From Escherichia coli (GTDB lineage Bacteria > Pseudomonadota > Gammaproteobacteria > Enterobacterales > Enterobacteriaceae): 64,000 nucleotides of DNA. The stretch lies in the NCBI RefSeq assembly GCF_036507355.1, contig NZ_AP027877.1; one strand, written 5' to 3'. Positions 8,864 through 9,916 of this stretch are shown in pieces. Each line of letters starts with the position of its first letter. Within the stretch, counting starts at the first letter, position 1. The translations under genes and the position numbers were made by a program. The notes below the pieces were generated by a model. The model made no database searches, had not been told where the DNA came from, and was given only the letters and a program-made list of their open reading frames with translations.

Positions 8864-9916
8864 ATGAAAAAGACAGCTATCGCGATTGCAGTGGCACTGG
8901 CTGGTTTCGCTACCGTAGCGCAGGCCGCTCCGAAAGATAACACCTGGTACACTGGTGCTAAACTGGGCTGGTCCCAGTACCATGACACTGGTTTCATCGA
9001 CAACAATGGCCCGACCCATGAAAACCAACTGGGCGCTGGTGCTTTTGGTGGTTACCAGGTTAACCCGTATGTTGGCTTTGAAATGGGTTACGACTGGTTA
9101 GGTCGTATGCCGTACAAAGGCGACAACATCAACGGCGCATACAAAGCTCAGGGCGTTCAGCTGACCGCTAAACTGGGTTACCCAATCACTGACGATCTGG
9201 ACGTTTACACTCGTCTGGGTGGTATGGTATGGCGTGCAGACACCAAGTCTAACGTACCTGGTGGCGTATCCACTAAAGACCACGACACCGGCGTTTCTCC
9301 GGTCTTCGCTGGCGGTGTTGAGTACGCGATCACTCCTGAAATCGCTACCCGTCTGGAATACCAGTGGACCAACAACATCGGTGATGCACACACCATCGGC
9401 ACTCGTCCGGACAACGGCATGCTGAGCCTGGGTGTTTCCTACCGTTTCGGTCAGGGCGAAGCAGCTCCAGTAGTTGCTCCGGCTCCAGCTCCGGCACCGG
9501 AAGTACAGACCAAGCACTTCACTCTGAAGTCTGACGTTCTGTTCAACTTCAACAAAGCAACCCTGAAACCGGAAGGTCAGGCTGCTCTGGATCAGCTGTA
9601 CAGCCAGCTGAGCAACTTGGATCCGAAAGACGGTTCCGTAGTTGTTCTGGGTTACACCGACCGCATCGGTTCTGACGCTTACAACCAGGGTCTGTCCGAG
9701 CGCCGTGCTCAGTCTGTTGTTGATTACCTGATCTCCAAAGGTATCCCGGCAGACAAGATCTCCGCACGTGGTATGGGCGAATCCAACCCGGTTACTGGCA
9801 ACACCTGTGACAACGTGAAACAGCGTGCTGCACTGATCGACTGCCTGGCTCCGGATCGTCGCGTAGAGATCGAAGTTAAAGGTATCAAAGACGTTGTAAC
9901 TCAGCCGCAGGCTTAA
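8864..9916 (+). CDS. ompA: Outer membrane protein A (variant surface-loop allele)
   Basis: 350 aa from [21 protein letters not shown]; beta-barrel plus C-terminal OmpA domain; APAPAPAP hinge; differs from K-12 in loops 1-3. Confidence 0.95.

Follow-up and report, generated by a model that had tools for sequence, protein, structure and literature searches.

One question raised by the ompA gene in the stretch of Escherichia coli DNA analysed here (64,000 nucleotides, hereafter the window) is how a protein that is the same as that of strain K-12 in its signal peptide, loop 4, hinge and whole periplasmic domain, as seen in a codon alignment, came to carry other residues in its outer loops 1 to 3, with a third loop that exceeds its K-12 counterpart by four residues. 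Such an allele could be the product of recent mutation and insertion in a K-12-like gene, of a recent import from another species, or of exchange between allele classes of long standing.

The gene itself poses little difficulty. An intact open reading frame of 1,053 nt (8864-9916, plus strand) ends in TAA and encodes a product of 350 aa; its ATG start lies 7 bases 3' of a GAGG ribosome-binding site, and, whereas a mechanical list of open reading frames extends this one upstream to a GTG at 8792, the annotated homologues all begin at the ATG. The product has the layout of OmpA, with a signal peptide followed by an 8-stranded beta-barrel, which a Pro-rich hinge joins to a periplasmic OmpA-like domain. 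In a search of the PDB the 350-aa product matched the full-length structure 3NB3 with E = 7.9e-228, while the barrel structures 1BXW, 1QJP and 9FZD matched residues 21-196 (E = 1e-107 to 1e-117) and the C-terminal domain structures 2MQE and 4ERH matched residues 204-350 (E ~1e-90). Pfam assigns PF01389 (OmpA_membrane), PF13505 (OMP_b-brl) and PF00691 (OmpA) to the exact protein, so that the PF01389 barrel and the PF00691 C-terminal domain are both present. The gene occupies the orthologous position: the order sxy-sulA-ompA-matP-ycbZ-fabA is the canonical ompA neighbourhood, and the order from sxy to ycbZ is common to K-12, XJ6-3, TR01, ET350 and ten other assemblies. Judged by sequence and position, the gene is the chromosomal ompA of the E. 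coli/Shigella type. The assignment of residues to strands and loops follows the crystal-structure descriptions that Liao 2017 (PMC5413513) cites. An AlphaFold2 model built from a 14-sequence alignment has low confidence (mean pLDDT 41.6, pTM 0.40) and shows 8 strands across residues 27-195; not good enough to support fold searches or to read loop geometry from, it served solely as a weak check on strand order.

For the comparison with K-12 the reference was MG1655 ompA (b0957, NP_415477.1), aligned codon by codon and numbered on the mature protein; the differences, with the other features of the locus, are collected in Table 1. A first-pass annotation, made from the sequence without database searches, had named the gene as ompA, in agreement with the near-identical match to solved OmpA structures, the Pfam domains and the synteny, and had quoted three loop strings, all of which are present in the translation; the 14-residue loop 3 string, which it had placed at about 9251-9290, spans 9251-9292. 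The K-12 loops that it quoted are correct when set against MG1655, the loop residues do differ, and the periplasmic domain is identical to that of K-12 in the alignment, as it had held. Its further statement that the protein departs from K-12 only in the loops is right for the changes in loops 1 to 3 but overlooks I93V, which sits in a transmembrane strand, so that the barrel strands are not identical as had been thought.

Table 1. Coordinates of features at the ompA locus of the window, with residue changes given relative to K-12.
Feature	Coordinates	Strand	Basis
ompA coding sequence	8864..9916	+	ORF, PDB matches, Pfam, RefSeq annotation
Signal peptide, 21 aa, same as K-12	8864..8926	+	K-12 alignment; mature-domain chains start at query residue 21-22
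Segment identical to YZMc3-1 (Liao pattern V, also D25), one base from K-12	8864 to ~9112	+	
N25D, loop 1, GAC for K-12 AAC	8999..9001	+	Codon alignment
S66D, V67N, E68I, loop 2, GAC AAC ATC (DNI for K-12 SVE)	9122..9130	+	Codon alignment
Segment at most 1 nt from 042, SMS-3-5 and cryptic Escherichia, very unlike K-12	9122-9290	+	
Minimal 'long-type' block: loop 2, strands beta4-beta5, loop 3	9122..9280	+	Variable sites, bins, synonymous clustering
I93V, barrel strand, DLDVY for K-12 DLDIY	9203..9205	+	Codon alignment
Loop 3 variable stretch, 11 residues for K-12 S-N-V-Y-G-K-N	9248..9280	+	Codon alignment
Y111P, loop 3	9257..9259	+	Codon alignment
Four extra residues G-V-S-T, loop 3	about 9263-9274	+	Exact placement alignment-dependent
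N114D, loop 3 (K-12 numbering)	9278..9280	+	Codon alignment
K-12-like segment, 2 synonymous differences (9385, 9617) in ~630 nt	9290-9916	+	
GC-rich hairpin between A-run and T-run	9930..9959	.	Direct reading and RNA fold

Some of these positions are known to vary. Position 25 is a loop-1 polymorphism (N, D or P), and position 93, which lies near the periplasmic end of the transmembrane strand flanking loop 3, is divided about equally, ~50% I and ~50% V (Liao 2017, PMC5413513); the change I93V is a conservative one. With the K-12 protein (Liao pattern I-alpha, 'OmpA-short', 1BXW/1QJP) the window allele shares its locus, its synteny and 7 of the 8 barrel strands, and the C-terminal positions N203 and G251 match K-12 (alpha type). 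Outside the block 9122-9280 the nucleotide sequence departs from K-12 at 3 positions only (8999, 9385 and 9617). The latter two are both synonymous, 9385 giving GAT for GAC (D153) and 9617 giving TTG for CTG (L231), and neither change was found in the eight other allele classes compared; 9385T is also present in XJ6-3, and bin counts point to only one other locus, among those compared, with 9617T. TTG is a rare leucine codon for a highly expressed gene such as ompA.

The distribution of silent changes bears directly on the origin of the allele. There are 10 synonymous codon differences from K-12, and eight of them fall within 9134-9254, that is within 41 of the 346 shared codons, giving a density of 0.195 per codon inside this interval against 0.0066 outside it (binomial P = 1.4e-6, or ~5e-4 when corrected for all window positions). 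This pattern is far from random. The ompA gene is highly expressed and codon-biased, which partly accounts for the low synonymous divergence outside the block; even so, block and backbone differ ~30-fold in synonymous density.

A table of variable sites over nine alleles, combined with difference counts per 90-nt bin, resolves the gene into the three segments listed in Table 1, with the breakpoints of the central block lying somewhere in 9038-9121 and in 9281-9385. The affinities of the block are with OmpA-long (Liao patterns II/III; 9FZD in complex with nanobody Nb39), with which the window has in common the DNI of loop 2, the length of loop 3 and its N-V-P-G-G-x-S-x-K-D frame, and an identical DNA sequence in the loop 2 region. 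Having the four additional loop 3 residues, that frame and DNI, the window protein is of the OmpA-long isoform. It is nevertheless distinct from the 9FZD chain at five residues of the barrel domain (D not P25, V not I93, S not A108, V not A115 and T not F117, numbered on the mature window protein), three of them in loop 3 and one in loop 1, and the 9 nt differences that cluster around loop 1 in the P25 alleles are absent from the window. The OmpA of strain 042 (WP_014639122.1) has the same residues as the window in all four loops (D, DNI, the 11-residue string and H) as well as V93, and differs by N203T in the C-terminal domain and by 13 nt in total. Just after loop 1, however, 042 is 'long-type' at 9010, 9019, 9034 and 9037, where the window is K-12-like. 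Since this difference occupies 9010-9037, the same block has been joined to backbones at different junctions.

Taken together, these observations make it very probable that the window carries a mosaic ompA, produced by intragenic recombination between old allele classes, and that this is a rare, already catalogued allele with a predicted change of specificity. The 5' part, including the D25 codon of loop 1, would derive from a K-12-like or 'pattern V' backbone, as would the 3' two-thirds from a K-12-like backbone, while a block of ~160-250 bp comprising loop 2, strands beta4-beta5 and loop 3 would have come from the 'OmpA-long' allele class. The difference from K-12 would then reflect homologous recombination within the gene between long-standing classes, and not recent point mutations with an insertion. 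The OmpA-long class would itself be old, being shared with another Escherichia species and having slightly different forms in Citrobacter and Salmonella. Chen et al. (bioRxiv 10.1101/2021.09.21.461324) have already described mosaic evolution of the hypervariable regions of ompA in loops 1-3. Relative to that study and to the Liao 2017/2022 catalogues the phenomenon is the same, namely local recombination reshuffling loops 1-3 on a conserved scaffold. Beyond these the window offers nothing different in kind: it adds a further junction variant at the nucleotide level, with two synonymous changes private to it. The addition is a modest one: evidence at the nucleotide level for a cross-species block on a K-12-like backbone, with a junction unlike that of 042.

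That the allele is not new is clear from the databases. The exact protein is RefSeq WP_032223517.1 and UniRef A0A2A3W346_ECOLX; it occurs on at least 868 contigs in a collection of 15 billion proteins, where it is named 'MULTISPECIES: porin OmpA [Enterobacteriaceae]', and in 1,676 blocks of a protein index. Both XJ6-3 (bovine) and TR01 (cattle carcass) encode an OmpA, WP_032223517.1, identical to that of the window, the ompA product of ET350 (frog) has the same accession, and ten further loci fetched by exact protein all translate to the same sequence. Comparison with an OmpA allele catalogue, which the first-pass annotation had proposed as a check, places the loop pattern in Table 3A of Liao 2017 (PMC5413513), where it is carried by strain 249, one of 78 environmental isolates. 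The window has D at position 25, DNI at 66-68, the 11-residue string at 108-114 and H at 149, which is this outer-loop pattern, and SNVPGGVST is among the loop-3 variants newly described in the same study. Among the papers searched, the loop-3 string occurs in none beyond Liao 2017, and the searched supplements of the nanobody study PMC12259851 gave no match to it. The protein, the loop pattern and the phenomenon of mosaicism are thus all already known from the literature and databases.

Although it has been catalogued, the allele is rare in E. coli. The gene is present in all but one of 5,426 complete E. coli genomes, and in only 20 of these does it reach at least 99% identity to the window ompA; the closest differs by one synonymous base, and none of the 5,426 has an ompA identical to that of the window. 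The exact DNA of loop 3 (56 nt) was found in 22 of the same genomes (0.4%), with 40 further genomes having the segment with one mismatch, and the exact 186-nt segment from loop 2 to loop 3 in 5. Carriers, which include 042, come from cattle, pigs, chickens, baboons, a frog, humans and wastewater; since they span such varied hosts, the allele is scattered across sources and not confined to one. One carrier is anomalous in its label: TR01 (NZ_CP033605.1) is described as O157:H7 and has the rare 350-aa allele, while the gene in the other O157:H7 genomes of that search has the K-12 length (346 aa), with 96.8% identity, so that TR01 has either had its ompA replaced through recombination or bears an atypical strain label.

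How widely the block is distributed beyond E. coli was assessed by scanning 100,044 species, each represented by a single genome, for DNA that encodes the 14-residue loop 3 string. There were two matches, in 'E. coli' SCPM-O-B-8794 and in a Citrobacter MAG; Salmonella was not among them. The flanks of SCPM-O-B-8794, a GTDB species representative, are only 92.3% identical to the window, and for this reason we take the strain to belong to a different, cryptic Escherichia species. It nonetheless has DNI and an identical 11-residue loop 3: loops 2 and 3 are the same as those of the window at the protein level, with 1 nt different over 9122-9290. Elsewhere its OmpA has N in loop 1, N for H in loop 4, M161L and N203T, and over the gene there are 31 nt differences, or 97.1% overall identity. 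The flanks of the Citrobacter MAG are 83% identical, and it has DNI with SNVPGGASTKD. Likewise, DNI and V93 occur, with a long loop 3 of the S-N-x-x-G-G-x-S-T/Y-K type, in four OmpA proteins of Salmonella enterica that fall in the same 90% cluster.

Because Escherichia, Citrobacter and Salmonella share DNI and a long loop 3, the long class is trans-specific, and to speak of an 'insertion' is to take K-12 as the point of departure. The first-pass annotation's account of the allele as substitutions and a 4-residue insertion holds relative to K-12, but as a description it is K-12-centric for what is an old recombining allele class. Its statement that similar alleles occur in pathogenic strains and in Shigella was borne out, since enteroaggregative 042 carries exactly the same four loops and one S. 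flexneri OmpA has DNI with the long loop ANVPGGASFKD. With few outgroups to consult, the comparison suggests that the SVE and short loop 3 of K-12 are more likely the derived or an alternative state; the short loop 3 of Yokenella, a more distant relative, counts against a long ancestral form, and interspecies transfer could mimic shared ancestry of the block. A bolder proposal, to which we attach somewhat less than even confidence, is that the block of DNI with SNVPGG(V/A)STKD is a trans-species polymorphism predating E. coli, kept rare in E. coli by phage-driven negative frequency-dependent selection, the short loop of K-12 being derived. Were this so, the window would hold one recombinant junction among several that arose independently and carry the block from one backbone to another.

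The same data can be read to mean that the block from loop 2 to loop 3 was imported fairly recently from the cryptic Escherichia clade or from another enterobacterium. The single nucleotide difference from SCPM-O-B-8794 over 9122-9290, set against flanks of 92.3% identity, would agree with this, as would the rarity of the allele in E. coli, at about 0.4-1%. Yet ompA is 97.1% identical between the two species and evolves slowly everywhere, and the direction of transfer cannot be told from these data. Moreover, E. coli very commonly carries the related long class (ANVPGGASFKD with DNI), which accounts for ~40% of the isolates of Liao 2017 (PMC5413513), and in 2,129 of the 5,426 genomes the loop 2-loop 3 query is aligned for 80% or more of its length. 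Being common among both isolates and genomes, the long class as a whole is native to E. coli, and a recent import is accordingly an improbable source of the block.

Still less probable is the fixation, by positive selection on a K-12-like gene, of recent point mutations together with an in-frame insertion of 12 nt. It is true that all of the amino-acid differences but one lie in loops, and that the loops of outer-membrane proteins are classic targets of diversifying selection (bioRxiv 10.1101/2021.09.21.461324); but selection on loop residues leaves unexplained the eight synonymous differences between loops 2 and 3. The same block is found, besides, in unrelated E. coli (042, SMS-3-5 and bovine, avian, primate and frog strains) and in a different Escherichia species, and Salmonella and Citrobacter also have DNI with a long loop 3. 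We reject this account on the packing of the synonymous differences, on the sharing of the block across lineages, and on the implausibility of independent convergence at synonymous sites. An assembly or sequencing artefact, such as a mis-assembled loop region, has a negligible probability and is refuted by the intact frame and by the recurrence of the exact protein on 868 independent contigs and in the complete genomes XJ6-3, TR01 and ET350.

If the allele is, as we favour, a recombinant of old classes, one may ask what the exchange would mean for the function of the protein. The barrel, the hinge and the peptidoglycan-binding domain are unchanged, and the structural role would be kept; a conserved scaffold and direct orthology argue that the housekeeping function is retained. 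The replaced tips of loops 1-3, on the other hand, would form the contact surface for phage adhesins, colicins, antibodies and host factors. Differences in receptor and epitope specificity across allele classes are well supported. When eight ECOR variants of OmpA were expressed in MG1655 delta-ompA, the broad-range Gp38 phages FL08 and AV119 infected all of them, whereas the narrow-range FL12, FL18 and FL20 infected only variants with loop 2a and loops 3a/3b (PMC12032242). One of the ECOR variants tested has T137 in loop 3 (PMC12032242), which, to judge from the residues, would fit an ST-type long loop like that of the window allele. The nanobodies Nb01 and Nb39 touch all four loops and discriminate strictly between a short and a long loop 3, and even a small change in this loop, NFDG for NVYG, abolishes nanobody binding (PMC12259851). 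Similarly, the 'NI' of loop 2 affects entry of Sf6 in Shigella (bioRxiv 10.1101/2021.09.21.461324), and surface properties that depend on the allele were shown by Liao 2017/2022 (the former PMC5413513).

By analogy with these cases, the window allele probably has changed receptor and epitope specificity, in line with the first-pass annotation's reading of it as a receptor-specificity variant. We would predict that phages needing an SVE loop 2 and a short loop 3 should not infect its host, that phages accepting all loop combinations should still do so, and that the short-isoform nanobody Nb01 should not bind the protein; for Nb39 the outcome is uncertain, given the five differences from the 9FZD chain in the barrel domain. 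Loop alleles of OmpA bear on the host range of phages used in therapy, on diagnostics and vaccines, and on studies of conjugation and invasion, and a strain with this rare pattern may go unrecognised by reagents that target the two common isoforms. Beyond correct annotation the significance of the allele is small.

The sequences on either side of the gene merit brief comment. The hairpin downstream of ompA (9930-9959) has a fold energy of -21.4 kcal/mol (z = -5.9) and looks, from its sequence, like a bidirectional intrinsic terminator serving the convergent ompA (plus strand) and matP (minus strand). It is absent from the output of a consensus terminator scan, probably as a consequence of the pairing of its A-run with its T-run. 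Upstream, the long sulA-ompA intergenic region contains a TTG-initiated ORF of 72 aa (8491-8709, minus strand), which is called as a gene, with no Pfam match, in one public assembly and has no RefSeq annotation; the call is probably spurious, the ORF lying over the ompA promoter and 5' UTR region.

From rlmI to ycaI the window aligns collinearly with E. coli ET350, to which it is 98.8-99.4% identical, and only insertions of IS1 interrupt this agreement. There are two such elements, at 29270-30037 and 31111-31878, each of 768 bp with InsA and InsB ORFs on the minus strand, and the copies are only 91% identical to one another. The first lies inside the usher gene elfC, with the direct repeat CAAAATTG on its flanks, while the second replaces ~695 bp that in ET350 comprise elfA and its upstream region; in addition ~190 bp of elfC are missing near 28066. 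By reason of these insertions and of the losses from elfC and elfA, the elf (ycbQ) chaperone-usher fimbrial operon is inactivated. The junction between IS1 and elfC recurs in none of the complete E. coli genomes (5,426 searched), among which the best identity over 25 kb is 99.4%; this hints at a lineage resembling Shigella or EIEC, or at one not yet sampled. Further along, the pepN region (~36350-38960) has 35-43 mismatches per kb relative to ET350 in kb 36-37, compared with mostly 1-15 elsewhere, and is probably a recombination patch. Finally, ompF, the gene for the second major porin, is placed at ~42600-43680 by collinearity with ET350, and for this gene the same mosaic evolution of loops as in ompA has been reported (bioRxiv 10.1101/2021.09.21.461324).
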